Source: an uncultured Gammaproteobacteria bacterium (GTDB lineage: Bacteria > Pseudomonadota > Gammaproteobacteria > GCA-002705445 > GCA-002716945). From it: a stretch of 64,000 nucleotides of DNA. Positions within the stretch are counted from its first letter, which is position 1; the number at the start of each line of letters is the position of its first letter. Of the stretch, positions 28,220 to 48,720 are shown one piece after another. A model generated the notes under the pieces. That model was given only the letters and a program-made list of their open reading frames with translations. It made no database searches and had not been told where the DNA came from. Location of the stretch: contig CACAVP010000001.1 of assembly GCA_902535975.1 (NCBI GenBank), positions 6,352 to 70,351 of the forward strand, read 5' to 3'. The translations under genes were made by a program, and so were the position numbers.

Positions 28220-29329
28220 CTAATCAATTCCTCTATTATTTATAACTTTTCTCAAGTTATCAGATTTAGAATAAGGGCTATCAACATCATCAATCATCAA
28301 TGGTTTACTCGCTTTAAGATCTTTTAGGATTATAGTTTCATTTACTATCTCACGACACGACAGCTGTCCCTTGACTAATGGAATAGCTAATTTAAAAAGA
28401 TCGTTAAAATTATCACTAGATATTTTTGTACCTTTAGGGATATCTTTCCTCATATAGATTCCTCTCACTAGTTCATCGAGATAAACAGTCTCTCTATTTG
28501 ATATGATGCGCCTCGAGGTGGAATTGCCACCGCAAATTTCTCTTGCTTTTTGGTATGCTTGAAACCACTCATGTATATTATCGGGTATAGAATTATACTT
28601 TGACACCGCTACACCGCCTTCATTAATATCGATATGTCTTTCCCATGTTCTAGCCCCCTTGGCATACGATGCAATCATTGAATTGGTCCAATTATGATAT
28701 TCATGTGATGAGAAACCAATGATGTTATTTGGATATCTCTTTCTAAGATAATCAATTTGATCTAACTCCAATTCGTGATCCTCGGAGGGATATAATGATA
28801 CACAGTGATTCACTGCAAGAGGAATATCTCTTTTATTGAAGTAGTCAACTATATTATCAATATCAAGTTCCGACATACCTCCAGTTGATACTATTGTCGG
28901 TAATTTTTTTGATGCTATTTTCTCAATTAATGGCCAATCATTTGCATCAGAACTTGCAATTTTGATAATTGGATAGCCTAGTTCTTCACATACATCAACA
29001 GATTTCTCATCGAAAGGTGTTGCCATAGCGATACATCCTGAACTTATAATTTTATCAGAGAGCTTTTTATAGCTACTTTTGGAAAGTTTTGTTGAAATTG
29101 TTTTTGAAATGTATCTCGATTTTTTATAGTTTTTATAATCATCATGAATAAAATTGTCAACATCTCTAATCTGCAATTTTATTGCTGCTTTAATTTTGTT
29201 ATAACGAACAACTTTTGAATATTGTGAAATGATGCTCTCACCTCTTTTGATATCACCCAGATGATTGTTAGCTAATTCAAGTACAAAAAGATCTTGGAGA
29301 AGTTCTTTACCTTTATTATGTTTTGACAT
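28220..29329 (-). CDS. NeuB-family nonulosonic/ulosonic acid synthase (PEP-aldose condensing), with C-terminal AFP-like domain
   Basis: LELANNHLGDIKRGESII vs NeuB EIGINHEGSL. ATPFDEKSVD...IKIASSD...PTIVSTGGMS...AVNHCVSLYPSE...IGFSSHE...ERHI. C-terminal KGTKISSDNF SAF domain. Confidence 0.75.
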   Translation of the reverse strand: MSKHNKGKELLQDLFVLELANNHLGDIKRGESIISQYSKVVRYNKIKAAIKLQIRDVDNFIHDDYKNYKKSRYISKTISTKLSKSSYKKLSDKIISSGCIAMATPFDEKSVDVCEELGYPIIKIASSDANDWPLIEKIASKKLPTIVSTGGMSELDIDNIVDYFNKRDIPLAVNHCVSLYPSEDHELELDQIDYLRKRYPNNIIGFSSHEYHNWTNSMIASYAKGARTWERHIDINEGGVAVSKYNSIPDNIHEWFQAYQKAREICGGNSTSRRIISNRETVYLDELVRGIYMRKDIPKGTKISSDNFNDLFKLAIPLVKGQLSCREIVNETIILKDLKASKPLMIDDVDSPYSKSDNLRKVINNRGID

Positions 29330-29431
29330 GACTCACCCCGAGCTACAATAATTTCTGAGGTTAACATTTGTAGCTTATTATTTCAAATCGAAATTTATTT
29401 CAGAAGAAAAAAGAGTGTATTATATAAAAAA

Positions 29432-30376
29432 TTAATCATCATCAAAATTAATTCTCTTTTCTTCGATGATTATTGGTCTGTTATTTATATAACGTAATAT
29501 ATGAGCAAGATATTCTCCAATAAATCCAATTACAAGAAATAATGCACCAAATAAGAATGACGTGAGTATGATCAATGGCGCAATACCAGCAGAAAAATCT
29601 GACCAAAAGATTAACTTTTTGAAAAAATAATATATACCTATTAGTATGCTTATAAAACTAATGATAAAACCAAAAAAACTTATGATTCTCAAGGGGACTA
29701 TAGAATTACTAATAATTCCTAACATACCTATGTCATAGAGTGTATAGAGATTATTTTTAGTAACACCCTTCTCTCTCCTATTTTGTGTAAATTCAATTAG
29801 TTTAGGTTTAAATCCTAATTCAGTAATCATTCCTCTCAAGTACGGATATGGATCATTTATTTTCTTAATAATATCTATAAATCTTTTTGAATATATACCA
29901 AAACCAGTAGAGTGATGAATAATGTCGTGTTCTGTAATTTTCTTTAAAAATGTGTAATACAAACCTCGTATTTTATGAAATAAAAAATTTGTTTTAGATC
30001 TAGTTTTCACTCCTAAAACTACCTCATCACCTTTAAGCCAAGCATCTACTAACTCAGGGATTAATTCAGGAGGGTCTTGCATATCAGATGCAAGATATAA
30101 CACAGCGTCTGAATTCGTCTGCATCATGGCCCAATATGGTGATCTTATATGCCCAAAATTTCTTTTATTAAAAATAAGCTTTAGTTTTTTGTCTTTAGAG
30201 GCAAGTTTCTCCAACAAAGATCTAGTATCATCTGTACTGGCGTTATCAATAATCAGCACGTCAATATCAATATCACTAATCTTGGATATATTCTTCTTAA
30301 CTGAAGTATAGAAATCTTGAATTATTTCTGCTTCGTTATAACAAGCTGATACAATTGTAAGTGTTTTATTTGGCAT
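29432..30376 (-). CDS. polyprenyl-phosphate sugar synthase (GtrB/ArnC/DPM1-type GT2 with two C-terminal TM helices)
   Basis: TIVSACYNEAE, DNASTDDT and DMQDPP motifs plus C-terminal hydrophobic hairpin. Confidence 0.75.
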   Translation of the reverse strand: MPNKTLTIVSACYNEAEIIQDFYTSVKKNISKISDIDIDVLIIDNASTDDTRSLLEKLASKDKKLKLIFNKRNFGHIRSPYWAMMQTNSDAVLYLASDMQDPPELIPELVDAWLKGDEVVLGVKTRSKTNFLFHKIRGLYYTFLKKITEHDIIHHSTGFGIYSKRFIDIIKKINDPYPYLRGMITELGFKPKLIEFTQNRREKGVTKNNLYTLYDIGMLGIISNSIVPLRIISFFGFIISFISILIGIYYFFKKLIFWSDFSAGIAPLIILTSFLFGALFLVIGFIGEYLAHILRYINNRPIIIEEKRINFDDD

Positions 30377-31379
30377 TTTTAGATTTATCCATAGATGATA
30401 CTCTGATTTTTAACAATAGTTTAGAGATTAACAAAAAAATATCTCCATATCTGATTCTTGATAGCGCAATAACTGAAACACCATAAATCAGCGCAGCCCA
30501 TCGAGGCAATATAACAATCGGTCTTATAATCCTATATGATAGGTATCTACTCAAAGAGCTATCAAATTCAATGAGATTATCAATGGAAATGTGATTTAAC
30601 CTTCTATATAAAAAATATTGCGAATAAAATAAAAGGATAGTTTTTATGAGTACTTTTTTATAAATATCACTGTCTAGGTATGATAAAAGTTGTTGACTAT
30701 AGTTGTTAACGAAAATCTCATAGAAATCATAGTTATATTCATAGTTTATTTTTGCAGCAATCATAAATTTTCCAATATACAAGTTATTATTATGACTAGA
30801 TGCTTGTAAAAGTAAATTCAATTGATATAAGGAGGTGTTTTCCGAATGCACAGCATCACTAAAATCAACTAGCTCTCTATTGACTATGATCGAAGAGATG
30901 AAAGTAGATCTATATGATACTTTCTCAATGAAATGATTAAAATCATAAGCATAAGTTAGTTCATTAAAAATGGGTTTTTCATCATATGATTTTTTATACC
31001 CGTAAGAGTTAAGGAATATACATGATAGCTCTTTATCTCTTATTTCTTTGATAAGATATGCTATGCTATCTTCTAGAATATAATCATCGTCTCCAACAAC
31101 CCAAATATACTTTCCGCTAGCTTTTTTGTAACAATTTATAATATTCTTATCGCCACCAATATTTTCTGAATTTTGAATAATCACTAAATGCTGCTTCAGT
31201 GATTTATATTTACTAAGAACATCTAGCTTATAATTAGATGAGTCATTGATTGATACAAGAATTTCTAATTCTATATTTTCATCCATGGCTATGATGTTTG
31301 TTTCAAGTGACTTTATACATAATTCAAAAAGATCTTCTCTCTGATATGTTGGAATACAAATAGATAATAATTTAGACAT
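30366..31379 (-). CDS. glycosyltransferase family 2
   Basis: SICIPTYQRE start. DDDYIL DxD motif. GT-A fold. Confidence 0.65.
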   Translation of the reverse strand: MSKLLSICIPTYQREDLFELCIKSLETNIIAMDENIELEILVSINDSSNYKLDVLSKYKSLKQHLVIIQNSENIGGDKNIINCYKKASGKYIWVVGDDDYILEDSIAYLIKEIRDKELSCIFLNSYGYKKSYDEKPIFNELTYAYDFNHFIEKVSYRSTFISSIIVNRELVDFSDAVHSENTSLYQLNLLLQASSHNNNLYIGKFMIAAKINYEYNYDFYEIFVNNYSQQLLSYLDSDIYKKVLIKTILLFYSQYFLYRRLNHISIDNLIEFDSSLSRYLSYRIIRPIVILPRWAALIYGVSVIALSRIRYGDIFLLISKLLLKIRVSSMDKSKNAK

Positions 31380-32598
31380 TTTTTATTTTGATAATACTTC
31401 TAATTGCTAGTGGTAATACAACAACTAATTGCATCCCAAGCAAAGACACAAGTGGCCCGTAAACTCCGTGTGTCTTGATTGTAATAATACTAAACAGTAA
31501 AATAACTAACGAGCTTAAAGAGTTTATTTTGAATAAAGGGTCAACTAAAAATGATCTTGTATAGATGATCAAGCTACCAATTATCTGATTTATTAGTATT
31601 GCGACTGCTAAAATAATCATTAAGTCAAAACTAAGCATCCTACTAGTTAAAACACTCAAGCTCTCCAAATAATAAAATATTGATATTATAACTACACCAG
31701 GTATGTAGATCTGAAATAACTCTCTAATGCTTTTAATATATATTTGATCTAAATTTCTAAGGTTCTTATTTGTTGCTTCTTGAGTCATGTTTGGAATACT
31801 TAAATGTAGCTTAGATGAGGAAATTAATAATATAGTATTGAGCATAGCTAAAGTTAGACCAAATTGTCCTGATAGTTCAACGGAAAGATAAATAAAAATT
31901 ATAAGTATCTGAAATTGTGTGATGATGTAACCGGCAAGCCAAGATATGCCAACGTGGATAACAAATGTCTCTCTGGGTAATTCGATGGAGTGGCTGGATA
32001 ATACTGAATTTAAATAAACATAAAATAGTCTATTATGTTTTTTTATCAAGTAAAGAATTTGCACTATAACAGCAGATATAGAAATCGCAATAGTAGCTAA
32101 GAGTCCAACAAAATATAAAACAACAATAAAAAAAAATATGATTGATGAAACATTCTGTACCAGTTTAATAAAATAAACTTCTCTTATATGTCCAGTCCCC
32201 TGCAAAATAGCAAATATTGGCATCAAAAATAAAAAAATTGAGGAGGTTAAACACAAGAGCAACCATATTGGTATCCAATTATAGGAAAGATTTTGATCTT
32301 GATAAGAGAAGAATATATAACCAATTATAGTAAAAGAAATAAAAAAAAATACACTGGACTTTAAATATTTAGGTGCAGAATATCTTAATAAATCATCACT
32401 ATTACTAATTTTTGATGATGATAGGTGTAAGAGTGATTCAGAATATCCAAAATCAAATAATGTATAAAATCCCACCATTGTTAAAAATGCATAATACCAA
32501 CCCTGCTCATAGATTGTTAGATAGCTTGTAACAAGAAAAAGAAATAGAATTCCTGTAACTGCATGGACTATTCGCTGTATGAGTATAATATTATTCAT
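31372..32598 (-). CDS. polytopic membrane protein, putative Wzx-type flippase
   Basis: ~12 hydrophobic segments. 408 aa. Position within the glycan cluster. No sequence motif verified. Confidence 0.35.
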   Translation of the reverse strand: MNNIILIQRIVHAVTGILFLFLVTSYLTIYEQGWYYAFLTMVGFYTLFDFGYSESLLHLSSSKISNSDDLLRYSAPKYLKSSVFFFISFTIIGYIFFSYQDQNLSYNWIPIWLLLCLTSSIFLFLMPIFAILQGTGHIREVYFIKLVQNVSSIIFFFIVVLYFVGLLATIAISISAVIVQILYLIKKHNRLFYVYLNSVLSSHSIELPRETFVIHVGISWLAGYIITQFQILIIFIYLSVELSGQFGLTLAMLNTILLISSSKLHLSIPNMTQEATNKNLRNLDQIYIKSIRELFQIYIPGVVIISIFYYLESLSVLTSRMLSFDLMIILAVAILINQIIGSLIIYTRSFLVDPLFKINSLSSLVILLFSIITIKTHGVYGPLVSLLGMQLVVVLPLAIRSIIKIKNV

Positions 32599-34390
32599 GA
32601 ACAGGGATTATCATATTCTCCTGAAGCTCTTCTTTGCTCAAAAATGGTGATAAATCCTCTAAAGGTGGTGAAGTTATTGTGCCATCCGGATGCTGCTTGG
32701 CCCCTAATTTAGGTTCGAAGCGTTGATTTGGATCTACAAAGACCTCGAGTATGCCAGACGATTTTTTCAGAAGTTTTTTGACTTCTCTCTCTAATTTACT
32801 TATATCTTTGCATGCTTCGTATTTAAAACCAAATGAGGAAGCAATTTTTCTGAATGACGGAAAAGTGACGCCACTTTTAGGACCAGAGCCAAATTCTTTT
32901 CCATTGAAGAAATTTTTTTGAGTTTGGAACATTGATACATACCCTTTATTGTTAATGATTATTATTTTTATTGGTAGTTGATTTGATTTGATAGTTTCTA
33001 GTTCTTGAAGATTCATCATAATGGAACCATCGCCTGTAATACATACAATGTCTTTCATGCCACTGCTATAGCATGCACCAATTGCCGCAGGTAAATCATA
33101 ACCCATTGTCGCGGACCCTGAGTTAGACCAAACCCTCTGGCCTTTTTTTATTTTAAATGCCTGGTGAGTTGTTACCACGGCCGTACCGTTTGCTGTTATA
33201 ACAATGTCATTATTTTTCATATTATTTGAGAGTATATCGATCAGACAGTACGGATTAATTTGTTTTTTAGGATTATAAAATTCATCCTTTACGACAGGAT
33301 ATTTTATTTTTCTTTTTTTACACCACGTAATCCAATCATTATGAAGCATAAGTTTATTTCGTATTTTCTGAGTTAATCTGGGGAGAAATATATTTAGATT
33401 TTTATGAACTTTTAAGTATGGTTTAACTGTATGTTTATTGAGTTCTGTTTTATCAACATCAACCCAGATAATTTTTGATGCTCTTGCAAACATTTTATAA
33501 TTGTAACTAACTTGTCTTATGTTAAGTCTAGAACCTAATACAAGGAGTAGATCAGAATTTTGAACAGCAAAGTTTCCTGCTCTATCACCAACCGTACCAG
33601 CTTTGCCAATATATAATTTATGGTCTTCCCATATCACATCTTGAGAGTTGAAAGAGGAAACTACTGGAATATTTAATAAATTTACCAGCTTAATGAAGTC
33701 TGCATGTTTACCCGACAATCTTATTCCACTTCCGCAATATATTACAGGCCTCTTTGATTTTTTGATTAGTGAGAGGATTTTTTTTAATTTATTATCAAGT
33801 TCTTTTTTATTTTCTACTATTCTTGGAGGAACATATCTCTTCATCTTTTTTATATCCACCATTGCTGCCTGAATATCCAAGGGTATATCAAGCCAACATG
33901 GTCCTGGTCTGCCAGATTTAGCTAAATAAATTGCTTTTTCAAGATCATATAGAACATCTTTAGCTTTTGTAATCATCTTAGAAAACTTTGTTATTGGTTT
34001 GATAACTGGAATTATATCTAGTTCTTGATCACCTAATTGTCTGAGAGGAACTTTTGAGGCGCTAACAGTTGTCTCTAGTTTTACTTGTCCAGATAGGACG
34101 ATCATTCCAATACTATCGACAAAAGCCCCATAAACGCCAGTTATAGCATTTGTCCCTCCTGGCCCTGATGTGACATTTAGAGCGCAGAGGTTGTTATTAA
34201 GTCTATAAAAAGATTCTGCAGCTATGCTAGATGCTTGCTCATGGTGATTGTAAATTACGTTGAATCTTTCATTTATAGAAAATGAATGATTAAGATGCAT
34301 AGACCCTCCCCCAGTGACTGAAAAACATGTGTTTATCCCATGTTTAGCCAAAGTTGTTACTATAAGGTCACTTACTTTTACAGTTGTCAT
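32591..34390 (-). CDS. thiamine-diphosphate-dependent enzyme, acetolactate-synthase-like (YerE-type sugar branching enzyme candidate)
   Basis: N-terminal TPP_enzyme_N. Central domain. C-terminal GDGS...MNLQELETI TPP-binding motif. Adjacent to ddhA/ddhB. Confidence 0.7.
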   Translation of the reverse strand: MTTVKVSDLIVTTLAKHGINTCFSVTGGGSMHLNHSFSINERFNVIYNHHEQASSIAAESFYRLNNNLCALNVTSGPGGTNAITGVYGAFVDSIGMIVLSGQVKLETTVSASKVPLRQLGDQELDIIPVIKPITKFSKMITKAKDVLYDLEKAIYLAKSGRPGPCWLDIPLDIQAAMVDIKKMKRYVPPRIVENKKELDNKLKKILSLIKKSKRPVIYCGSGIRLSGKHADFIKLVNLLNIPVVSSFNSQDVIWEDHKLYIGKAGTVGDRAGNFAVQNSDLLLVLGSRLNIRQVSYNYKMFARASKIIWVDVDKTELNKHTVKPYLKVHKNLNIFLPRLTQKIRNKLMLHNDWITWCKKRKIKYPVVKDEFYNPKKQINPYCLIDILSNNMKNNDIVITANGTAVVTTHQAFKIKKGQRVWSNSGSATMGYDLPAAIGACYSSGMKDIVCITGDGSIMMNLQELETIKSNQLPIKIIIINNKGYVSMFQTQKNFFNGKEFGSGPKSGVTFPSFRKIASSFGFKYEACKDISKLEREVKKLLKKSSGILEVFVDPNQRFEPKLGAKQHPDGTITSPPLEDLSPFLSKEELQENMIIPVHE

Positions 34391-35424
34391 TTATCTTTGT
34401 TCCATTGGTAGGTTCTCTCTATTGCTTCATTTAAAAATACAGATTGTTGAATACCGCTACAACTAATAATTTTATTATTATCAGGGACATATCTTGAAGT
34501 ATTCCATCCTACATCCTTTTTATCTTCAACTACGTAACTACTATGATATTTTGATGCAATCATATCAGCTAACTTAGATATTGATACGCATTCTTTTGAG
34601 CCAAGATTATATGATCCGCTTGTATTATCATCAACAAGGAGAAATAACATCCATAGTACCAGATCTGTTGGATAGAGATACGAGCGTACAGGCTTACCAT
34701 TTCCTTTTACAACAATTTTTTCTTTTTTTAATGCATTATCTATAAAATTACCTGCAGCAAAATGTATATCAAGAGAAAGCATTGGTCCAAGTAGTGCAAA
34801 TATCCTTGCATTTGCATATTTGAGGTTATATTTTTTACTATATAGTGCAAATAATGATTCAGATGAGCGTTTAGCCTCGGCATATGCATGAAGTGCGTTT
34901 GACGTATCTGGTGCAGATCTCTCTGACTCCTTGATATATTCGATATTACTATCTTGAACGCCATATATTGCCCCAGAGCTGAGGTTCAGTGCTCTGCCAG
35001 TAAATTTTTTCTTTTTTAGTTCTGAAAGAATTCTTTTTGTGCCATCAACTACTACTGAAAACATTTCTATTGGGTCTTTTTCGTTAAGTTCTGCACTTGC
35101 TGATGTTGCACCATGTACTAAGTAATCATAATTACAGTTTAGTGACATCTCTCTTATATCTGATTGGATTACATGAATCGATTGATTAGTAAAATCTATG
35201 TATTTATTTTGATACAATCTTTCTTTATCTCTTGTTAAGACATGTAATGTGTATGAGCAACCTGTCAATTTTTGATAATGAAGGAGGGATGATATTAGCC
35301 ATTTGCCTATGAATCCAGTACATCCGGTTAAAAGAATTTTTTTATTATCAAGTTTTTTCAGATACTTACCACCAACTTCGGTGATGTAATCTAGGTCATC
35401 ATTAATACACCACCTTTTATTCAT
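34387..35424 (-). CDS. NAD(P)-dependent epimerase/dehydratase family protein (extended SDR; sugar nucleotide reductase/epimerase)
   Basis: ILLTGCTGFIGKWL Rossmann fold. YAEAK catalytic motif. Confidence 0.6.
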   Translation of the reverse strand: MNKRWCINDDLDYITEVGGKYLKKLDNKKILLTGCTGFIGKWLISSLLHYQKLTGCSYTLHVLTRDKERLYQNKYIDFTNQSIHVIQSDIREMSLNCNYDYLVHGATSASAELNEKDPIEMFSVVVDGTKRILSELKKKKFTGRALNLSSGAIYGVQDSNIEYIKESERSAPDTSNALHAYAEAKRSSESLFALYSKKYNLKYANARIFALLGPMLSLDIHFAAGNFIDNALKKEKIVVKGNGKPVRSYLYPTDLVLWMLFLLVDDNTSGSYNLGSKECVSISKLADMIASKYHSSYVVEDKKDVGWNTSRYVPDNNKIISCSGIQQSVFLNEAIERTYQWNKDK

Positions 35425-36466
35425 CTAAATATTCGTGTATCTGTTTTTTAGAAAATTCTAACATATCCTTGTTATTCATATATGCTTTGTACCATTCTAC
35501 AGTAGCAGTCAGAGACTTTTCAAAACTCCACTTTGGAATCCAATCTAAATCTCTGCGTGACTTTGTTATATCTAAATAAAGCAACCCTGCCTCGTGATCA
35601 AACTTTTCTCTAGAGATATCATAGTTCAGCTCAGGCAATTCTATTTTCATGTACTCGACTACGTCTCTAACCGTTTTATGTGAGGTTTCATTCGGCCCAA
35701 AATTCCATGAGCCTTGCACATTTTCAACAGAATATAACCTCTCTGCAAGCTCCATATAACCAATAAGTGGTTCTAGTACATGTTGCCATGGTCTTACAGA
35801 GTCTGGATATCTTATCAGTAGCTGCTTATTAGAGATAATTGATCTAAAAATATCTGGTATTAATCTATAATTTGACCAATCTCCGCCTCCAATAACATTA
35901 CCAGCTCTTGCAGTTACTGCCCGAGGAATCTCTTTAAAGAAAGAAGATATGTATGCTGACGTTACGATCTCAGAGCAGGCTTTTGATGCAGAATATGCAT
36001 CATGACCACCAAGCTCGTCTGTTTCTTTATATCCTGTGTTTTTTTCGAGATTCTTATAACATTTATCAGATGTTACATTTACAAAAGCTTTTATATAATC
36101 AAAAGTTCTTACAATTTCGCAGATATTAACACTTCCAATTACATTTGTTTCAAAAGTATTAACCGGATCTTTATATGATTCTTTGACTATGCTTTGTGCG
36201 GCCATATGAAAAATAACTTCCGGTCTGTGCTCCGATACTAAGCTATGCAGATTGTTATAATCTTTAATGTTAGAAATATTACTTTTACAAACAGTATCTA
36301 ATTTATTTGTTTGAAATATCGAAGGCGTTGTATTCGGCTCTAACGATACACCTACTATTTCAGAGCCAAGTTCATTTAAAAGCATGGTTAACCATGAGCC
36401 TTTAAATCCTGTGTGACCAGTTATAAGGACCTTTTTATTTTTCCAAAAGTTAGTCTTTAAAGTCAT
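35417..36466 (-). CDS. rfbG: CDP-glucose 4,6-dehydratase
   Basis: FWKNKKVLITGHTGFKGSWL N-terminus typical of DdhB/RfbG. YSASK. Confidence 0.85.
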   Translation of the reverse strand: MTLKTNFWKNKKVLITGHTGFKGSWLTMLLNELGSEIVGVSLEPNTTPSIFQTNKLDTVCKSNISNIKDYNNLHSLVSEHRPEVIFHMAAQSIVKESYKDPVNTFETNVIGSVNICEIVRTFDYIKAFVNVTSDKCYKNLEKNTGYKETDELGGHDAYSASKACSEIVTSAYISSFFKEIPRAVTARAGNVIGGGDWSNYRLIPDIFRSIISNKQLLIRYPDSVRPWQHVLEPLIGYMELAERLYSVENVQGSWNFGPNETSHKTVRDVVEYMKIELPELNYDISREKFDHEAGLLYLDITKSRRDLDWIPKWSFEKSLTATVEWYKAYMNNKDMLEFSKKQIHEYLDE

Positions 36467-37223
36467 GCCAAGGGAATATTTTCTTAGACTGAGCTAGGTC
36501 ATTCAGATAATTCATGTCTCTCAATGTATCCATCGGTTGCCAGAAAAGTTCATGTTTATAAGCGCTAAGTTCATTTTTATCAGCCAATTTTTCAAGTGGC
36601 TCTCTTTCCCATATAGTCATGTCATTATTAATATAAGAGAATATTTCTGGCTCAAGAACAAAAAAACCTCCGTTTATCCAACCTGATTCTCCAATAGGTT
36701 TTTCAACAAATTTAGTTACAGATCCATTATCTAATGATACAGACCCAAACCTACCTTGTGGTTTAACTACTGTCATTGTTGAGATTTTTTTTGACTCCTT
36801 ATGGTGATCTAATAGTTTATTAATATCGATATTACCTACACCGTCACCATAAGTAAGAAAAAAGGTCCCATCTATATATTTTTTGATTCTTTGAATGCGG
36901 CCACCTGTCATTGTAGTTTCACCTGTATCAACTAACGTGACTCTCCAATTCTCCGAGTTATTTGAATGAACTTCCATCTTATTTTCTTTGAGATTAAATG
37001 TAATATCAGAATTACGAAGCAGAAAGTTAGAAAAATATTCTTTGATAGTATAACCTTTATAGCCACAACAGATTATAAAATCAGACACACCGTAGTAAGA
37101 ATATATCTTCATTACATGCCATAGAATTGGTTTGCCAGCAATCTCCACCATTGGTTTAGGCACTCTTGATGTCTCCTCTGAGAGTCTTGTTCCTAGGCCG
37201 CCAGCAAGAATTACTGCTTTCAT
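36450..37223 (-). CDS. rfbF: glucose-1-phosphate cytidylyltransferase
   Basis: MKAVILAGGLGTRLSEET..PKPMVEIAGKPILWHVMKIYS...FIICCGYKGY almost co-linear with Salmonella RfbF. Confidence 0.9.
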   Translation of the reverse strand: MKAVILAGGLGTRLSEETSRVPKPMVEIAGKPILWHVMKIYSYYGVSDFIICCGYKGYTIKEYFSNFLLRNSDITFNLKENKMEVHSNNSENWRVTLVDTGETTMTGGRIQRIKKYIDGTFFLTYGDGVGNIDINKLLDHHKESKKISTMTVVKPQGRFGSVSLDNGSVTKFVEKPIGESGWINGGFFVLEPEIFSYINNDMTIWEREPLEKLADKNELSAYKHELFWQPMDTLRDMNYLNDLAQSKKIFPWHDFKD

Positions 37224-37255
37224 AATAATCTCTGTAATATTTAAACTTATCTAAA

Positions 37256-38497
37256 CTAAAGTTTATGAGTAATGCAATAGTTTTTCAAACCTATAATTGT
37301 TGAATCAATAGCACTTGTACATTTCACAACTTTTAAATTTGTATTGTACTCTAATACTTCACAAAATTCAGGAATTTTCACACCAAGTGCACCAGTTACA
37401 TATATTTTTTTAAAATCTTGATAGCGTTTGATATCGTTGACGATAGATATATACTGATTAACAAGTGCCTTTTTTATAGAGTATATATAATCATCGATCT
37501 CGTTGATATTATCAATAGATGTTAAATTCTCATTTTTTTTATAACCATACAATCCTTTTATTATGCTCAGATTAATTTCATATTCATTATCATGATTTAT
37601 GTTATTACTAGTCTTGAATAACTTGTTCCAAAAAATAGAATCAATATTTTCATCAAATAGTGAATCGACATAAGAAGCATATTCATTAAGTACTCTGCCA
37701 CAAGGAATGTGCGTTAATGTATTAATGAATTTTTTATTCGCAAAGGGTCTAATTTCATAAGATAGATTTGGGGAATATTCCATGGAAACCTGAGAGCCTG
37801 TTCCCAGGTTTATGTTTACACTTGAAGACAAGTCAATTGACATTATAGCTGCTTGTAGATCACCTAAACCTCCATATATAGGGATATTTTTTTTTGAATA
37901 ATTTATATATCCAAGTGTTTCACTATATGATGAAACATCGTAAGTAATAATTTCTGTCTCATCCAAACTCTTCATCCAACTATTGTTCCAGATATCAAAT
38001 AATCCAGTGGCAGCAGCAAGATGTATGGATGTTTTATTGCTCCATGAACCATTTAAAAGAATTAAGGCGTCTATAAGTGAAAGGAGATGGCTTTTTTTAT
38101 GAAAATTTTCATGATACTTTAGATTGATTCTTGGTAACCCGACTTTGTCATTAATGCCAGTAATTTTTAACAAGCTGTCGTCTGGGCTTTGTATATTTTT
38201 TTCTTTGTTATGTGATAAATCTGCTCTCCATGATATATACAAATCTTCTTCTAATGGTGGCAAAGATTCAGATAATATAAATCCATGCATTTCAGAGCAT
38301 ATGGCTATTTTGTCAATGTCATGATGATATTCAAGATGTTCATGAAATCTCTCATTTATATACCTTAATGTTACTTTTGATCTTTCATTGAAAAATGTTC
38401 CAGGAGTGCTAAAAATATCTGACAAGACTTTAGTTTCAGAATTAAATAGCGATGATTTTACTCGACTAGCACCAAAGTCTATCAATAATATATTCAC
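37256..38497 (-). CDS. ASKHA-fold putative sugar/cyclitol kinase (hypothetical)
   Basis: N-terminal LLIDFGASRVK resembles the phosphate-1 motif of the actin-like ATPase/sugar kinase superfamily. Overlaps the DHQS-like gene by 4 nt. Confidence 0.3.
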   Translation of the reverse strand: MNILLIDFGASRVKSSLFNSETKVLSDIFSTPGTFFNERSKVTLRYINERFHEHLEYHHDIDKIAICSEMHGFILSESLPPLEEDLYISWRADLSHNKEKNIQSPDDSLLKITGINDKVGLPRINLKYHENFHKKSHLLSLIDALILLNGSWSNKTSIHLAAATGLFDIWNNSWMKSLDETEIITYDVSSYSETLGYINYSKKNIPIYGGLGDLQAAIMSIDLSSSVNINLGTGSQVSMEYSPNLSYEIRPFANKKFINTLTHIPCGRVLNEYASYVDSLFDENIDSIFWNKLFKTSNNINHDNEYEINLSIIKGLYGYKKNENLTSIDNINEIDDYIYSIKKALVNQYISIVNDIKRYQDFKKIYVTGALGVKIPEFCEVLEYNTNLKVVKCTSAIDSTIIGLKNYCITHKL

Positions 38498-39669
38498 ATC
38501 TGGCTTAAATTCTTAATTGTCTCATTGATTCGCTTATCACTCACTTCGTCAAGAGAGAAGTCAATAAATCTCATATCACCAATCCTGCTTATAATTGCTA
38601 ATTTTAAGTTTGACCCGATAACCTTTTTGTCTCTCTTTAGAAATTCAATAAAAGAACTATTTTTTAATGTAAAGAAATAGTCCAGTGAGTTTTTTGGGAC
38701 TATATTCATAACTATGTCCCTGATAACAGAGATGGTATCAGATGATAAATCTAAAATAGATCTAGAAAGTTCATTTTCAACCATGATCCCGAGCGCAACA
38801 GCTTGTCCATGTGGAATTTTAAAATCAACCATTGCTTCAATAGCATGACCTATGCTGTGACCATAATTCATTGATTTCCTATGATTAAGCTCAAACTCAT
38901 CATATTCCACTACTGACTTCTTAACAGATAAAGATAGCTTTATCAGTTTATCAAGAATTTCCTTATCTGGCTTTAAGAGACTATCATTAGATATCAAATG
39001 GTAAATAAGTTTTTTATATTGTAAAAAAACTTCCTCCCCACCTGTGATCGCTAACCTAAGAATTTCACCATAGCCTGAAAATATATCATCTTTATTAAGA
39101 GTATAATTAAAATTAGTATCAATAATTATTTCTCTTGGGGCGGAAAAGAGTGCAATTAAATTTTTGGTACCATTATGGTTCAAACCCGTCTTGCCCCCTA
39201 CGCAACTATCACTTTGACCCAATAAAGTTGTAGGGATATATTTCCAAGGTATCCCTCTTTTAAAGGTAGCTGCTGCATAAGCTACTAGATCTTGAATAAT
39301 TCCTCCACCTAACCCATAAATACATGTTCCTCGGTTAGCATTATTTTCAAGAAGAAAATCACATATTCTGAGAGCTTCATGAATATTTTTATTATCTTCT
39401 ACAGCTTCAACAATATAGGTAGGATAACTATTTAAAGTATCGCGTAAATTAGGATAAATCCTCATTATATTTTTATCAGCTATAAATATATAATCTGAAT
39501 ATTTTTCGTTATTTAGATCTATCTTACTTACAACATTATCAGTAAATGTTACTTTATAGTCTCGCGGTGAGGATGATATGCACATAGTATTTGAATTATT
39601 CAAATCCACATTAAAATCTGAACCATCAATTAAAAAATTATATTCACTAGTTGTTCTCAAAAAAACCAC
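38494..39669 (-). CDS. 3-dehydroquinate synthase-like sugar phosphate cyclase
   Basis: GLGGGIIQDLVAYAAATFKRGIPWKYIPTTLLGQSDSCVGGKTGLN, GTKNLIALFSAP and ELNHRKSMNYGHSIGHAIEA...HGQAVALG align block-for-block with AroB/DHQS-family motifs. ~80 aa N-terminal extension. Confidence 0.75.
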   Translation of the reverse strand: MVFLRTTSEYNFLIDGSDFNVDLNNSNTMCISSSPRDYKVTFTDNVVSKIDLNNEKYSDYIFIADKNIMRIYPNLRDTLNSYPTYIVEAVEDNKNIHEALRICDFLLENNANRGTCIYGLGGGIIQDLVAYAAATFKRGIPWKYIPTTLLGQSDSCVGGKTGLNHNGTKNLIALFSAPREIIIDTNFNYTLNKDDIFSGYGEILRLAITGGEEVFLQYKKLIYHLISNDSLLKPDKEILDKLIKLSLSVKKSVVEYDEFELNHRKSMNYGHSIGHAIEAMVDFKIPHGQAVALGIMVENELSRSILDLSSDTISVIRDIVMNIVPKNSLDYFFTLKNSSFIEFLKRDKKVIGSNLKLAIISRIGDMRFIDFSLDEVSDKRINETIKNLSQM

Positions 39670-40330
39670 CTGCTATAAATCCACCATCGATAGTAATATC
39701 TTGGCCAGTTAGATACGATGCTTTTTCACTACATAGGTAAAGCGCCATGTTACTTATGTCTTTAACATTTCCTAGTCTCTTCAAAGGTATTCGTGTTTCC
39801 AGTTTTACGATATCTTCTTTTGGAAGATTATTTCTTGTAAGTTTAGTATCAATAAAACCAGGAGTAATTGAGTTTACACGGATATCGTATTGACTAAGTT
39901 CTAAAGCAAGGTTTTTCATTACACCTTGTAACGCATGCTTTGATACAGAATACGGAAATCTACCAACTCTTCCATAGCTCGAATAAAGTGAGGAAATTAT
40001 AACTATCGATGATGATTTGGATAATAAATTCTTTGTTATCAAGTAATGGACTATCTTTACAAATGACATAAAGTTAATATTGATTGATTTAAGTATTCTT
40101 TCAATATCATCAGATTCAAAATGATTCAATTTATTATCTGCAGCACAAAAAATTAAGTTGTCATAAACAGTTACAATTGATTGAAGATATTTATCAACAG
40201 AGTCTTTTGAAGATAAATCTAAATCTGATCTTGTTGTTGCGATAACATTACTTGTTTTTGAAAATTCATCAGAAATAGACGTCCCAATATCGCCATTTCC
40301 TGAAATTATAAGAGTATTTTTCATGCTCAT
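39647..40330 (-). CDS. short-chain dehydrogenase/reductase (classical SDR)
   Basis: IISGNGDIG glycine motif. YSVSK catalytic motif. 227 aa. Confidence 0.7.
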   Translation of the reverse strand: MSMKNTLIISGNGDIGTSISDEFSKTSNVIATTRSDLDLSSKDSVDKYLQSIVTVYDNLIFCAADNKLNHFESDDIERILKSININFMSFVKIVHYLITKNLLSKSSSIVIISSLYSSYGRVGRFPYSVSKHALQGVMKNLALELSQYDIRVNSITPGFIDTKLTRNNLPKEDIVKLETRIPLKRLGNVKDISNMALYLCSEKASYLTGQDITIDGGFIAGGFFENN

Positions 40331-40344
40331 AGTATAAGTTTACC

Positions 40345-40755
40345 TCAATCCTCAGCTTTAAATGTAATTTTACTCTGCCAAAGATATCCAAATAATATAA
40401 CAGGTATTGCAAACATATATTGAGCAATTACAGGATGTAGACTTAAATAATATATCAGAGCAGGTAATATTATTATATTAAATAAATAAACAATTACATG
40501 ATAAGTACTAAACTTGAATAACTCTGATATATAATTACCAGAAGTCTTAAATACATAAATCTTATTAGTCATGTATGCAAATAGGACGGAAATTATGTAT
40601 GATCCCGTAAGAATTTGGAGATAGTGAAAATTAAATTCAAATAATACAAAGTATAAAATTGGGAATATACTAAGACCTACTATAGTATTTACGATTCCTA
40701 CATAGAGATAACTTTTTAATTTATTCTCAGCCAACACGTTGGTACTATTTTTCAT
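40345..40755 (-). CDS. GtrA-family polyprenyl-phosphate-sugar flippase-like membrane protein
   Basis: 136 aa with four hydrophobic helices. Y.YVGIVNTIVGLSIFPILYF N-terminus typical of GtrA. Confidence 0.55.
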   Translation of the reverse strand: MKNSTNVLAENKLKSYLYVGIVNTIVGLSIFPILYFVLFEFNFHYLQILTGSYIISVLFAYMTNKIYVFKTSGNYISELFKFSTYHVIVYLFNIIILPALIYYLSLHPVIAQYMFAIPVILFGYLWQSKITFKAED

Positions 40756-40853
40756 GATATTTGAATATAGTTGCTCTATGTTAGAAAATGATAGTTCATA
40801 TAATGTAATTTTTCCACATAATAAATAAGTAATGTATTTAAGCTATTGAATGT

Positions 40854-42884
40854 CTATTTTACAAAAGAATAAAATGAGTATAGCATTTTATTATTTACAT
40901 GTAATGCTTTTCCCTTATCAATAATTTCTTTATACCAATATTGATTAGATACATTCATTCTATAAACATATACACTCTCTTTTTTATAAGTAAAAGCCCT
41001 ATCCTCATAACATTGATGAACATTAGAGCATCTTGCTAGAACATTTTCAAAATCGTTCAAATGCATCTGAGAAACATAGAAAATTAAATCGGTACTATCT
41101 TTTAAATTACATTCATCAATAAAATCGGTAATAAATTCGCTATCACATGTTTCTGCGTCAATGTTCGCCCTTGCAAAGTTAATATTGTATTGACCAGAAA
41201 CGTATTTTTTAATGATAGAATCTTCCATCTTTTTTGGTGGCAAGAAGTTATTTTTTTTTATAAGTCCATAATGTCCCTGATGCACAACGTGTGGCATCTT
41301 TAACATATAAATATGCATTGGTGGATTATACTTCATTTGTTCAATAGTTTTTTTAAGACTAGAAGAGGATGTCGTATCGTACCAAAATAATAAATTATAT
41401 TTCGATTGATTATCACTTAAGAGATTAAACATTGGTATTGAAGGTGTGGTTAAGATATTATTGTTTTCATTTTTTTGAGCAAAAGAAATAATATCATGTG
41501 TAAATTTGTCCATATGTATACCTCTAAAAATACCACTCGAAAATGATCTTTCATTTTTAATGTTATCTATGATGCTATTTGTTTTATATCCCCACCATTC
41601 ATATGAAGGATTAACAAGTTTATTTATTCCAAAAAAGACAGTTACAGTAATTATGGGCAAGATAGTATTTCTTAAAATATAGCTATCATCAGCGTTGTGA
41701 CAATATTTCTTGATCACAAAAATTAACTCTGCAAAAAATAACGCAAGTAAGATTTCTAAACTTACAGAATTAAAACCAGCTGTAGTTGTTCCGCAGTACG
41801 CAAGTGCATATAACGGTATACACAACAACACCTCACCTTTGGAGTTATTTCTTAAAAGTCGTAACAGAGGCCAAGATAGTGCGAAGACGTAAAGCAGCGC
41901 TGTTTTTACTTTAAATATGATAAAAATAGATATTATTAATACGAGAATTAGTATCAGGTAGAGATGTGATCGGGCGTTAACATTAGATATTCCGATGAAT
42001 GTTGAAATATTTTGGTAGTAATTTCCTATGAATGAAGCAAGTTTTTCTTTATATGATTGGATTAGAAAATATACAGCATACACGAAGGTTATCAGTAATG
42101 CAGATACTGTTATGATTGCTCTATTACCTGGATCTAGAATAAACCTAGACAAAACGACGAATATAGACCCTTTTGGTGTATCAAGCGAGAAGATTGTTAC
42201 CCATGAAGGAGTTATGTAGGTCGTATAAGCTAATAATAAGGCTATACTCACCAAGAATACAAGATTCTTCTTTAGAATACCTAAAAAATTATAGCCATAG
42301 AGGATTAGAAATCCATTTAGATATAACAATAACCCAAAACCATAAATTACACCGATATTATGTTTAGTAAGGATTAGTAGACCTATTAATAATCCCGAAA
42401 ACAGAAATGTCTTATTTTTTATTTTATTACTTGCGCTTGGCAAAATGTAAATTGTGAGAGCAACAATAAGCGATACAATAGTGTGATAGTCTTTAGCAAC
42501 AAATGTTGAATTGCTTATTATTAAAAAAAATACTAATAATGAACTAATGATAGCAGAGTGAATGTCAGTATATTTTTTTAAGATTAAGAAAATTATATAA
42601 AAGTTTAATGCGTGCAATAAGGCGAATATATATCTCAAAGAAATAAAATCTAATCCAAAGAGATCTATTAATCTACTAAATACATGGACTGTTAAAGGGG
42701 GTAAAAAATAATTATATTCTTTATAAATATCTACTCCACTGTTTACATATACAGCAAAGCTTTCAAACCATCCCTCTGTGATGAAGAACTGATACTTAGA
42801 AATAAAATAATTAAAAATTAATATAACAGAAAAAAAAGCTATGTAGATGGCTAAGGATATAATATTTTTTTTATCAGTCTTCAA
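40854..42884 (-). CDS. large polytopic membrane protein with C-terminal soluble domain (GtrC/GT-C-like glycosyltransferase candidate)
   Basis: ~12 N-terminal TM helices plus ~250 aa hydrophilic C-terminus. Follows the GtrA-like gene. Confidence 0.3.
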   Translation of the reverse strand: MKTDKKNIISLAIYIAFFSVILIFNYFISKYQFFITEGWFESFAVYVNSGVDIYKEYNYFLPPLTVHVFSRLIDLFGLDFISLRYIFALLHALNFYIIFLILKKYTDIHSAIISSLLVFFLIISNSTFVAKDYHTIVSLIVALTIYILPSASNKIKNKTFLFSGLLIGLLILTKHNIGVIYGFGLLLYLNGFLILYGYNFLGILKKNLVFLVSIALLLAYTTYITPSWVTIFSLDTPKGSIFVVLSRFILDPGNRAIITVSALLITFVYAVYFLIQSYKEKLASFIGNYYQNISTFIGISNVNARSHLYLILILVLIISIFIIFKVKTALLYVFALSWPLLRLLRNNSKGEVLLCIPLYALAYCGTTTAGFNSVSLEILLALFFAELIFVIKKYCHNADDSYILRNTILPIITVTVFFGINKLVNPSYEWWGYKTNSIIDNIKNERSFSSGIFRGIHMDKFTHDIISFAQKNENNNILTTPSIPMFNLLSDNQSKYNLLFWYDTTSSSSLKKTIEQMKYNPPMHIYMLKMPHVVHQGHYGLIKKNNFLPPKKMEDSIIKKYVSGQYNINFARANIDAETCDSEFITDFIDECNLKDSTDLIFYVSQMHLNDFENVLARCSNVHQCYEDRAFTYKKESVYVYRMNVSNQYWYKEIIDKGKALHVNNKMLYSFYSFVK

Positions 42885-42931
42885 AGCAGTTACCTTTTTT
42901 AAAAAATTCGAATAGTGCGCTTATCATCATG

Positions 42932-48031: not shown

Positions 48032-48720
48032 AATTTTTTAAGTAAAGTTTGAGATATAATATAATCTTCGGGTATTCCGATATCGATAAAAATCCCTTCG
48101 AAGTTACATACACCTATTTTTTCAAAATTTTTTTTGATTGCTAAAAAATCTTGCTCGAAAGAAAAATTTAATCCTTCAGTAAAATCATCTAGCTGATTAG
48201 TTTTTAAATAATAAACACCTGCATTAATTATACCAGGCTCATTACTTCCTTTTTCCTCAAACCCAAGAAGATTGTTATCTTTAAAAGAAATTGAGCCGTA
48301 TCTTGATACATTTTTAACAAATATTCCACATAGAATTGATTTATTAATCTTGTTAAACGTTGACTCCACTAAATCATAATTAATGTCTGCAAAAGTATCT
48401 CCATTAAATACAAAAATACAATCTTCTGTTGCATGAGAAATTCCTAGCTTAATTGCACCACCGGTTCCTAACATGTCTTCTTCTTTTGAAAAAATTATTT
48501 CAGTACCAAAATCTTCTTTTGAAAAATAGTCTATAATATATTGACTTTTATAGCCTATAGATAGGATTACTCTTTTAAAATTATTTTTAACTAAATGTTT
48601 TATTAATATCTCTAGAAAGGGTCTCCCATTAATTAACGCCATTGGTTTAGGAATATCTTTTACTAGAGGTTTAAGCCTTGTTCCAAGTCCGCCTGCAAGA
48701 ATTATTGCTTCTCTAGTCAT
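48028..48720 (-). CDS. sugar-1-phosphate nucleotidyltransferase, short form (HddC-like heptose-1-P guanylyltransferase candidate)
   Basis: AIILAGGLGTRL..L....PKPM. 230 aa with no C-terminal extension. In an operon with the heptose genes. Confidence 0.55.
   Translation of the reverse strand: MTREAIILAGGLGTRLKPLVKDIPKPMALINGRPFLEILIKHLVKNNFKRVILSIGYKSQYIIDYFSKEDFGTEIIFSKEEDMLGTGGAIKLGISHATEDCIFVFNGDTFADINYDLVESTFNKINKSILCGIFVKNVSRYGSISFKDNNLLGFEEKGSNEPGIINAGVYYLKTNQLDDFTEGLNFSFEQDFLAIKKNFEKIGVCNFEGIFIDIGIPEDYIISQTLLKKF

Follow-up and report, generated by a model that had tools for sequence, protein, structure and literature searches.

In Yersinia pseudotuberculosis, the precursor of yersiniose A is made by rfbF/rfbG-type genes (ddhA/ddhB) and its 3-hydroxyl is first removed by E1/E3 (DdhC/DdhD). 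The ThDP-dependent carboligase YerE, which uses pyruvate (PMC9306805, PMC12247030), then places a C2 branch on the C4 ketone of the CDP-4-keto-6-deoxyhexose, and the reductase YerF acts after it. The pathways of erwiniose (ErwE/ErwF/ErwI/ErwJ) and caryophyllose (MMAR_2331/2332) act on a 3,6-dideoxy acceptor: a 4-hydroxy-2-keto acid is made by a pyruvate aldolase of the BphI or the HpcH/citrate-lyase type, coupled by the ThDP enzyme to the CDP-keto sugar and followed by a reductase (PMC9306805). [quoted passage not shown] The structure of this C-4-branched sugar comes from Marchetti et al. 2018, as cited in PMC9912281, where it is described as 3-O-methylated. For another member of the enzyme family, JanthE of Janthinobacterium sp. 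HH01 (PDB 8rph, 8rpi and 8rpj), no physiological substrate is known (PMC12188165).

The locus studied here lies in a window of 64 kb (the whole stretch of DNA that was analyzed) from a low-GC marine gammaproteobacterium. Positions 32591-37223 are filled by four co-directional minus-strand ORFs of 257 aa (36450-37223), 349 aa (35417-36466), 345 aa (34387-35424) and 599 aa (32591-34390), neighboring ORFs sharing overlaps of 4 to 17 nt. The initial annotation had recognized in them rfbF, rfbG, an extended SDR and a 599-aa TPP enzyme, and we confirm this, with exact ORF coordinates. It took these four genes as the unit, but the operon additionally encodes a synthase resembling NeuB, a DHQS-like enzyme, an FGGY-like kinase and a second, short SDR. 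The quartet is part of a 14-gene module, 28220-44749, in one long minus-strand glycan operon:

28220..29329, minus strand: NeuB-family PEP-condensing synthase, presumed maker of a 3-deoxy-2-ulosonic acid donor (Pfam NeuB domain)
29432..30376, minus strand: GT2 polyprenyl-phosphate glycosyltransferase of the GtrB/ArnC/PgfS type (Pfam GT2)
30366..31379, minus strand: GT2 glycosyltransferase (Pfam Glycos_transf_2)
31372..32598, minus strand: Wzx-like flippase with 11 hydrophobic segments (NF041503 at 74 bits, below cut-off)
32591..34390, minus strand: YerE/JanthE-like ThDP-dependent carboligase, predicted to add the C-branch onto C4 (three TPP domains; JanthE is the best PDB match)
34387..35424, minus strand: extended SDR, presumed by analogy to reduce the C1' ketone of the branch, like YerF (Pfam Epimerase domain)
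35417..36466, minus strand: rfbG, CDP-glucose 4,6-dehydratase giving CDP-4-keto-6-deoxyglucose, the presumed acceptor (TIGR02622 equivalog)
36450..37223, minus strand: rfbF, glucose-1-phosphate cytidylyltransferase giving CDP-glucose (TIGR02623 equivalog)
37256..38497, minus strand: divergent FGGY-family sugar kinase (weak FGGY_N match)
38494..39669, minus strand: 3-dehydroquinate-synthase-like (DHQS-like) enzyme, presumed to act in omega-deoxygenation by taking the phosphate off a DAHP-like ulosonate (Pfam DHQ_synthase and DHQS_C)
39647..40330, minus strand: classical short-chain dehydrogenase, presumed ketoreductase after the DHQS-like step (Pfam adh_short_C2)
40345..40755, minus strand: small membrane protein of the GtrA family, for polyprenyl-phosphate-sugar handling or flipping (Pfam GtrA_DPMS_TM)
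40854..42884, minus strand: polytopic GT-C (PMT_2-like) glycosyltransferase with about 12 hydrophobic segments, presumed to transfer the branched sugar in the periplasm (Pfam PMT_2)
42932..44749, minus strand: 605-aa polytopic membrane protein with about 12 hydrophobic segments and no Pfam match or assigned family; it opens the co-directional array, its membership in the module being uncertain

We give a probability of about 0.5 to the reading that this module, the core of the operon, serves the synthesis and export of a higher-carbon 4-C-branched 6-deoxyhexose that retains its C3 oxygen. The assignments of the precursor genes hold, since both proteins exceed their NCBIfam equivalog cut-offs (RfbF, TIGR02623, 401 bits versus 300; RfbG, TIGR02622, 452 bits versus 278). 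They are respectively 59% and 45% identical to their Salmonella homologues, and the near-identical RfbF N-terminus noted initially corresponds to a perfect match of the first 18 residues. The extended SDR is intact, with its TGxxGxxG and YxxxK motifs.

The 599-aa protein presents all three TPP domains by Pfam, the catalytic Glu51 and a GDG...NN motif. Could it be an ordinary biosynthetic acetolactate synthase (AHAS), placed inside the island by chance? Its relatives are annotated at source as 'acetolactate synthase large subunit', and TIGR00118 is its top NCBIfam match, but the 346 bits obtained fall short of the 538-bit cut-off, and the protein stays under all other AHAS cut-offs as well. Its best PDB match is JanthE (8rph, full length, 418 bits, E=4.5e-124), far above the more distant YerE homologue PpYerE (266 bits) and any AHAS (233 bits at most), in agreement with the initial proposal of a YerE-like enzyme. 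JanthE aligns through the C-terminal PKLG...SPPLEDLSP tail and conserves it; with PpYerE and with most AHAS structures, the alignment ends before this tail, at query residues 541-543. By alignment count, the PKLG Lys, common to the C-terminal lids of both enzymes, is JanthE K567, a residue important for catalysis (PMC12188165); the ThDP motif differs, being the canonical GDG in the window enzyme and an unusual CDG in JanthE. Also against an acetolactate synthase, the gene overlaps those of the extended SDR (by 4 nt) and of the Wzx-like protein (by 8 nt) inside a glycan operon, it keeps its synteny with rfbF/rfbG in different phyla and no small-subunit gene was found adjacent to it, so that we regard this explanation as scarcely credible. 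Most likely, judging from the sequence, the ThDP enzyme extends a CDP-linked 6-deoxy sugar, the 3-oxygen of which is retained, by a carbon side chain. As a genotype this is not the rarely documented case that had been announced, the window enzyme having thousands of relatives at 55-60% identity.

The retention of this oxygen depends on the absence of E1/E3. Pfam scans of most ORFs of at least 150 aa in the window (those at 19.7-64 kb minus 54052-54597, 60114-60671 and 62439-63023, and 10 of the 18 under 19.6 kb) found no DegT or Fer2/FNR domain. With Salmonella RfbH and RfbI as queries, phmmer had no match at E<1e-5 among all window ORFs of 70 aa or more, and a six-frame tblastn for E1/E3 across the 64 kb returned only noise at E<=10. 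The claim that the island has no DdhC/DdhD is thus upheld within the 64 kb; an E1 could in principle be encoded beyond them. In our tree, the window ThDP enzyme is the sister of a group, clade A, which includes the R. palustris cluster, and JanthE branches basally. Among the clusters with RfbG in view, E1 occurs in 0 of 18 from clade A versus 21 of 27 others (Fisher 8e-8, phylogeny uncorrected). Because no E1/E3 would act, as indicated by gene absence in the window and in the whole sister clade, the C3 oxygen is expected to be kept. It must also be retained in the R. palustris sugar, since this is reported as 3-O-methylated. The predicted 4-C-branched 6-deoxy sugar with its 3-oxygen is supported, but the C2 branch that went with it is disfavored by the context of donor genes.

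For R. palustris we used a locus (L088) from assembly GCA_002937155.1, which encodes an identical ThDP protein, and compared it as the CGA009 cluster. Its order is RfbF-RfbG-HpcH-ADH-DHQS-SDR-ThDP-GtrA-MT-GT2, and 8 of its 10 genes have window homologues, with 28-62% identity. Common to both are RfbF, RfbG, the extended SDR (41% identity), the ThDP enzyme (53%), the DHQS-like enzyme, the short SDR, GtrA and the polyprenyl-phosphate-type GT2 (48%), as well as the lack of E1/E3; the window ADH and DHQS reach only 28% and 33% identity with their counterparts. The gene order differs, as does the host, a marine gammaproteobacterium for the window, which has no MT23 methyltransferase, carries the FGGY-like kinase inside the operon, and replaces the HpcH/citrate-lyase-type aldolase by the NeuB-family synthase. 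The latter stays under the PseI and NeuB equivalog cut-offs and conserves the residues of NmNeuB that we take to bind the metal and PEP. The neighboring genes suggest a long polyol chain of six carbons as in the Rhodopseudomonas sugar, of which the predicted product would, if true, be an unmethylated relative.

The nature of the donor was approached through a survey of 83 related loci. An HpcH-like aldolase is found in 46 and a NeuB-like gene in 19, never both (naive P=7e-9, phylogeny uncorrected), so that one or the other accompanies the ThDP enzyme in 65 loci; such mutual exclusion is expected if either one supplies the ThDP donor. The NeuB homologues of the 19 loci score 400+ bits, and in three of them (L026, L037 and L052) the gene abuts that of the ThDP enzyme. 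The DHQS-like enzyme and the short SDR come together in 23 of 24 loci, an aldolase-type gene also being present in 21 of the 24, and NeuB-like, DHQS-like, short SDR and FGGY-like kinase genes co-occur with the ThDP family across phyla. From this co-occurrence we infer that the donor is an acid made by an aldolase or a PEP-dependent synthase. The extended SDR has a homologue in all 23 clade-A loci, and GtrA is present in 22 of them versus 2 of the 60 others.

The initial annotation had instead proposed pyruvate as donor and a C8 sugar. The ThDP enzyme would then transfer two carbons to CDP-4-keto-6-deoxyglucose to give a 6-deoxy-4-C-acetyl or -hydroxyethyl hexose with its 3-OH, and the NeuB-like, DHQS-like, SDR and kinase genes would make an unrelated second glycan component. 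YerE does use pyruvate (PMC9306805, PMC12247030), which is also one of several donors accepted by JanthE, the best solved relative (PMC12188165), and in the window three genes, those of Wzx and of two GT2 proteins, stand between the ThDP gene and the NeuB-like gene downstream of it. We nevertheless find this unlikely in view of the mutually exclusive HpcH-like and NeuB-like genes, the loci where NeuB abuts the ThDP gene, and the R. palustris cluster, which has the same accessory genes and a tentatively assigned C6-branched sugar, while ErwE rejects pyruvate altogether (PMC9306805). A branch longer than C2 is more likely because of the accessory genes of the same operon and of the aldolase-donor scheme (PMC9306805).

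The DHQS-like protein, the gene of which overlaps that of the short SDR, raises another question. Its nearest PDB matches are true DHQSs (1e-41, versus 1e-21 to 1e-18 for sugar-phosphate cyclases), and it retains every position that we take to be catalytic or substrate-binding in AroB, those binding Zn, phosphate and carboxylate being invariant. True DHQS chemistry tends toward carbocyclisation at its end, the enol-pyranose intermediate cyclising readily. The NeuB-like and DHQS-like enzymes might thus form a DAHP-synthase/DHQS pair making a dehydroquinate-like carbocycle, reduced by the short SDR, in which case the final sugar would carry, or be fused to, a cyclitol, and the ThDP enzyme would couple the CDP-sugar either to a unit derived from the carbocycle or to a simple keto acid. 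O-antigen sugars with a carbocycle exist, such as bradyrhizose (PMC9912281). However, conversion to a dehydroquinate-type product would remove the alpha-keto acid function that a ThDP donor needs, and the same HpcH/ADH/DHQS/SDR/ThDP set goes in R. palustris with a tentatively assigned sugar whose branch is an acyclic deoxy-polyol (PMC9306805); we consider the carbocycle improbable and tentatively favor the idea of a non-cyclising DHQS homologue.

The long-branch reading gives the following route. RfbF and RfbG, identified by their equivalog scores, would produce CDP-4-keto-6-deoxy-D-glucose, whose oxygen would stay on C3 without an E1/E3 step. Separately, the NeuB-like synthase would condense PEP with a small aldose, which probably enters as a tetrose phosphate unless the FGGY-like kinase phosphorylates the product later, to yield a DAHP-like 3-deoxy-ulosonate phosphate. 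The DHQS-like enzyme may then perform the part of DHQS chemistry that comprises oxidation, elimination of phosphate and reduction, and the short SDR may reduce the omega-1 ketone, leading to an acid of the 3,7-dideoxyheptulosonate type. By analogy with YerE/YerF and ErwE/ErwF, the ThDP enzyme would decarboxylate this acid and direct the acyl anion onto the CDP-sugar, at its C4 ketone, and the adjacent extended SDR would reduce the C1' ketone of the branch. As predicted from sequence, the product is most likely a 6-deoxyhexose that retains its 3-oxygen and bears on C4 a long polyhydroxyalkyl branch rather than a C2 one, the branch probably being 1,3,4,5-tetrahydroxyhexyl-like. The locus would be a variation on the published branched-sugar scheme (PMC9306805); neither a PEP-dependent NeuB-type enzyme nor the DHQS-like/SDR/kinase trio appears in PMC9306805 or PMC12247030.

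For export, the GtrB/ArnC-like GT2 probably moves the sugar onto undecaprenyl phosphate, with GtrA handling it, and the GT-C protein would attach it outside the cytoplasm. This GT2 scores 146 bits with NF047588 (PgfS) and 95 bits with ArnC, both under cut-off, and has a pair of TM segments at its C-terminus. As for the kinase, which would be superfluous if erythrose-4-phosphate is the substrate, its weak FGGY_N match (E=0.002) spans the whole N-domain, and its homologues in L026, L052 and L013 match FGGY_N at 1e-16 to 1e-20; the kinase gene adjoins ADH-DHQS in L026, L052 and the P0011 locus. Finally, HAD phosphatases are found close to some clusters.

Four minus-strand ORFs with mutual overlaps of 4 to 17 nt occupy positions 32591-37223, as the initial annotation had proposed, and rfbF and rfbG lie directly upstream of the SDR and ThDP genes in the same operon:

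36450-37223, minus strand: rfbF, glucose-1-phosphate cytidylyltransferase (TIGR02623, 401 bits against a cut-off of 300, equivalog level)
35417-36466, minus strand: rfbG, CDP-glucose 4,6-dehydratase (TIGR02622, 452 bits against a cut-off of 278, equivalog level)
34387-35424, minus strand: extended SDR with TGxxGxxG and YxxxK motifs (345 aa, hereafter SDR345), its gene overlapping the ThDP gene
32591-34390, minus strand: ThDP enzyme of 599 aa (Pfam TPP_enzyme_N, M and C, catalytic Glu, canonical GDG...NN)

On sequence grounds, the identities of RfbF and RfbG are established. Compared with the Salmonella reference locus (L086), RfbF is 59% identical overall and the same over residues 1-18, which agrees with the near-identity claimed for its N-terminus, and RfbG is 45% identical. 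In the ThDP enzyme, E51, G453-D454-G455 and N480-N481 are invariant in our family alignment (A1), in keeping with the ThDP motif GDG-X(24-27)-NN. Its proposed membership of the YerE-like family was borne out by PDB scores, which place it nearer to JanthE and PpYerE than to AHAS or other ThDP subclasses. The best match, over the full length, is JanthE (8rph; 418 bits, E=4.5e-124), a YerE-like ketone-accepting carboligase from Janthinobacterium with unknown physiological substrates (PMC12188165, PMC12247030), followed by PpYerE (5ahk) with 266 bits, the AHASs with no more than 233 bits and glyoxylate carboligase with 160 bits. JanthE and the window enzyme have in common the C-terminal tail PKLG...SPPLEDLSP, whereas the alignment to PpYerE ends before it. 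That the protein might be a true AHAS (the IlvB, IlvG or IlvI large subunit) has almost no probability left, since its score is 346 bits for TIGR00118, whose cut-off is 538, and far below the cut-offs of the remaining AHAS models; with every AHAS model below its cut-off and JanthE as best PDB match, acetolactate synthase identity was rejected. The family is very large, with thousands of proteins at 55-60% identity from Rhizobium to Saccharibacteria, and the closest match in a one-genome-per-species survey was 55% identical.

The E1/E3 pair (DdhC/DdhD, or RfbH/RfbI) required by the yersiniose-type pathway (3,6-dideoxy, C2 branch) had been reported missing, and this holds across the whole 64 kb, where Pfam, phmmer and tblastn all returned no homologue. 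The Pfam scan showed no DegT or FNR/Fer2 domain in the ORFs of at least 150 aa that it covered, namely all those at 19.7-64 kb except 54052-54597, 60114-60671 and 62439-63023, and 10 of the 18 below 19.6 kb. Salmonella RfbH and RfbI had no phmmer match among the window ORFs of at least 70 aa, and six-frame tblastn of the window at E<=10 gave noise only. In a neighbour-joining tree without bootstraps, the window ThDP enzyme is sister to a clade (clade A) that includes Rhizobium, Bradyrhizobium, Methylotenera, many sphingomonads and one Saccharibacteria MAG, and whose clusters have the order RfbF-RfbG-(HpcH)-SDR-ThDP-GtrA-methyltransferase-GT2. E1, which scores 450-660 bits where present, was found in none of 18 clade-A loci as against 21 of 27 others with RfbG in view (Fisher P=8e-8, not corrected for phylogeny). 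Judged by this gene content, the absence of E1 is a property of the lineage. In the E1-containing loci whose order was examined (L037, L052), E1 sits beside or close to rfbG, so the gap directly after the window rfbG is meaningful. As a marker of 3-deoxygenation, E3 was rejected: among 31 related clusters with a strong E1/RfbH homologue (within L026-L084), an RfbI/E3-like gene lies no more than 10 kb away in a single case (L037), and E1 alone is therefore informative. The organisms that carry E1 may not need E3, or may encode it at another site.

A Bradyrhizobium clade-A query led to the Rhodopseudomonas palustris protein P0252, on a chromosome-sized contig of 5,459,214 bp, and an identical ThDP protein is encoded in locus L088 from R. 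palustris assembly GCA_002937155.1. This locus has no E1 or E3 and reads RfbF-RfbG-HpcH-like-adh_short-DHQS-like-SDR-ThDP-GtrA-MT-GT2. The window has homologues for 8 of these 10 cassette genes but lacks the methyltransferase and the HpcH-like aldolase, the latter being replaced by a NeuB-like synthase. Identities between L088 and the window are:

RfbF, 62%
RfbG, 43%
ADH (short SDR), 28%
DHQS-like, 33%
SDR (cluster reductase against SDR345), 41%
ThDP, 53%
GtrA, 38%
GT2, 48%

An R. palustris CGA009 cluster (aldolase, ThDP enzyme, reductase and SAM methyltransferase) was tentatively assigned to the sugar with a C6 branch in the O-antigen of the strain (PMC9306805). The same work showed by experiment that ErwE, MMAR_2332 and MyGE accept gamma-hydroxylated long 2-keto acids and that ErwE does not accept pyruvate (PMC9306805). 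Since the R. palustris sugar is 3-O-methylated (PMC9912281), its C3 oxygen is retained, and this E1-less relative supports the earlier argument that a pathway lacking E1 keeps the 3-oxygen. The E1-less R. palustris cluster is the nearest characterised relative of the window system. In L088, the aldolase and reductase genes are separated by adh_short and DHQS-like genes (7114-8932); for its cluster, the text of PMC9306805 makes no mention of either.

The idea of a unit of four genes did not stand, because the same-strand array is bigger and spans 28220-44749. Apart from the four core genes, it contains:

42932-44749, minus strand: 12-TM protein of unknown family, first in transcription order
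40854-42884, minus strand: GT-C (PMT_2)
40345-40755, minus strand: GtrA
39647-40330, minus strand: short SDR
38494-39669, minus strand: DHQS-like protein
37256-38497, minus strand: divergent FGGY-type kinase, its family taken from Pfam matches of homologues only
31372-32598, minus strand: Wzx-like protein
30366-31379, minus strand: GT2
29432-30376, minus strand: GtrB/ArnC/PgfS-like GT2
28220-29329, minus strand: NeuB-family synthase

The FGGY-like kinase ORF had no match in the PDB. A promoter and terminator scan of 26-45.5 kb gave counts equal to the shuffled expectation and is thus uninformative on the limits of the operon.

The NeuB-like protein scores below the equivalog cut-offs of PseI (114 bits against 340) and NeuB (109 bits against 400), and it keeps the equivalents of NmNeuB E25, K53, T110, K129, Y186, S213, H215, E234 and H236, which we take to be metal and PEP residues. 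Its best solved relative is PDB 3g8r (E=2e-55), named 'probable spore coat polysaccharide biosynthesis protein E', an entry for which we came across no account of a function, so that this NeuB subfamily already has a solved structure. In a PDB search, the DHQS-like protein matches true DHQSs at 1e-41 and sugar-phosphate cyclases less closely, at 1e-21 to 1e-18. AroB positions R120, D136, K142, N152, E184, K226, R240, N244, H247, H251, H264 and K323/K324, presumably the Zn ligands and the DAHP phosphate- and carboxylate-binding residues of the A. nidulans structure, are invariant in the DHQS-like alignment (A2), and the motif K-x13-R-x3-N-x2-H-x3-H occurs in 26 of 27 family members. Given that these positions are kept, the substrate should be a DAHP-like ulosonate phosphate. 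It is doubtful that the gene is a true shikimate-pathway AroB, since its place is in a glycan operon and its presence co-varies with that of the ThDP family.

This co-variation was surveyed in the contexts of homologues plus 80 loci taken from one genome per species, together 83 non-redundant loci, each ORF being scored against the window proteins, the HpcH-like aldolase, the methyltransferase and Salmonella E1/E3. Of the 85 loci first tabulated, many of them short contigs, 49 had RfbF and 47 had RfbG. An HpcH/citrate-lyase-like protein of 265 aa occurs in 46 of the 83 loci and a NeuB-like protein (400 bits or more) in 19, never both (naive hypergeometric P=7e-9); one or the other is present in 65, many of the remaining loci being short contigs. 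Phmmer against the window ORFs found no homologue of the 265-aa protein. The published 'unifying scheme' for acyl-branched sugars (PMC9306805), to which the system belongs functionally, places a pyruvate aldolase of HpcH/citrate-lyase or BphI type beside the ThDP gene, and here a NeuB-family synthase is found instead; the NAD(P)H-dependent reductase that the scheme pairs with the ThDP enzyme is represented by SDR345. DHQS-like and short-SDR genes were paired in 23 of 24 cases, 21 of the 24 having an aldolase-type gene too. Three related loci (L026, L052 and L037) have NeuB-ThDP-ADH-DHQS(-kinase), or these genes permuted, and two others (L047 and L031) have SDR-ThDP-ADH-DHQS-NeuB, so that the window carries the full set in a different order.

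By analogy and from gene context, the ThDP enzyme would decarboxylate a 2-keto acid and attach the remainder to C4 of CDP-4-keto-6-deoxyglucose, after which SDR345 would reduce the branch ketone, in the role of YerF/ErwF. For the donor, we tentatively propose, with a probability of roughly 0.3, that a conserved 'omega-deoxygenation' cassette of kinase, DHQS paralogue and short SDR diverts DHQS chemistry to supply 3,7-dideoxyheptulosonate to the YerE-like enzyme, the ulosonate being made in the marine lineage of the window by a NeuB-family PEP-dependent synthase and not by a pyruvate aldolase. The NeuB-like synthase would make the ulosonate from PEP and a small aldose by condensation, the FGGY-like kinase could provide the phosphate leaving group, the DHQS-like enzyme would perform only oxidation, phosphate elimination and reduction without forming a carbocycle, and the short SDR would reduce the resulting ketone to give 3,7-dideoxyheptulosonate. 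Decarboxylative addition and reduction would then yield a 1,3,4,5-tetrahydroxyhexyl side chain with a terminal methyl, exactly as in caryophyllose and the R. palustris sugar. HAD-family phosphatase genes lie beside some clusters (L088 3076-3744; the P0011 locus) and are unexplained if the DHQS-like enzyme takes off the phosphate.

The 3,7-dideoxyheptulosonate donor would account for the interchangeability of HpcH-type and NeuB-type genes, for the ADH and DHQS genes travelling with aldolase-type genes, and for the DHQS-like gene of R. palustris, whose sugar branch is an acyclic deoxy-polyol. DHQS intermediates cyclise readily, but a NeuB/DHQS pair that forms a carbocycle is an improbable reading. 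The pyruvate donor and C2 branch of the initial annotation, from which the retained 3-oxygen and the YerE-like enzyme are supported, we consider unlikely: the NeuB-like, DHQS-like, SDR and kinase genes of the operon, as putative keto-acid supply genes, argue against it, as they do against the four-gene unit.

As for export, GtrA was found in 22 of 23 clade-A loci as against 2 of 60 others, and clade A also has a GtrB/ArnC-like GT2 with a C-terminal TM pair, to which the window adds a GT-C protein. By analogy with Gtr/Arn systems, this combination suggests that the branched sugar is put onto undecaprenyl phosphate and added at the periplasmic face.

No new kind of system is revealed here, R. 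palustris being the chemically characterised precedent: retention of the 3-oxygen without E1 is already documented, and clusters without E1 are common. The new elements, to judge by the literature that could be searched, are the PEP-dependent NeuB-type donor supply and the proposed role of the DHQS-like/SDR/kinase trio; a search linking CDP-glucose, acetolactate synthase, dehydroquinate synthase, cytidylyltransferase and O-antigen returned nothing relevant. If the model holds, the retro-biosynthetic scheme for branched sugars would gain a NeuB-type, PEP-dependent supply of the keto-acid donor and a DHQS-derived deoxygenation step, the terminal CH3-CHOH of caryophyllose-type side chains would be accounted for, widespread 'AroB-like' and 'NeuB-like' genes of glycan clusters would acquire new functions, and the mis-annotation of glycan-locus genes as 'acetolactate synthase', 'dehydroquinate synthase' and 'sialic acid synthase' would be corrected. 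An abundant group of streamlined marine gammaproteobacteria would also be predicted to display a C12-type branched deoxysugar on the cell surface, which would bear on how phages and grazers recognise these cells, whose genomes have hypervariable glycan islands. In that case, the enzymes could also serve as biocatalysts for chiral tertiary alcohols.

DnaK of the window shares 94% identity with proteins of gammaproteobacterial MAGs and also has Tara Oceans matches; together with the GC content (26-38%), this points to a streamlined marine gammaproteobacterium as host. The lowest-GC stretch (0.26-0.27) holds a divergently oriented gene pair at 45136-48031 (plus strand), which encodes a protein of 462 aa with weak methyltransferase matches and one of 505 aa with a weak sulfatase-family match. 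A second sugar-nucleotide block at 48028-59938 (minus strand) encodes a 230-aa nucleotidyltransferase, a GMD-like dehydratase, an RGP-like (UDP-arabinopyranose-mutase-type) protein, an epimerase, a GHMP kinase and a GT2, as well as a GDP-mannose dehydratase, ManC, a SIS/GmhA-like isomerase and a Bac_transf initiating transferase, so the island makes several unusual sugars. Within the co-directional glycan operon, a full-length formate-tetrahydrofolate ligase (26503-28176, minus strand; NF010030, 909 bits), with no formyltransferase nearby, is flanked by the NeuB-like and Wzy_C/O-antigen-ligase-like genes. The arrangement is the same in L004, a lagoon metagenome contig with a 99% identical copy of the operon, in which many frameshifts split rfbF and the SDR, DHQS and FTHFS genes among others; this looks like long-read assembly error and not pseudogenisation.
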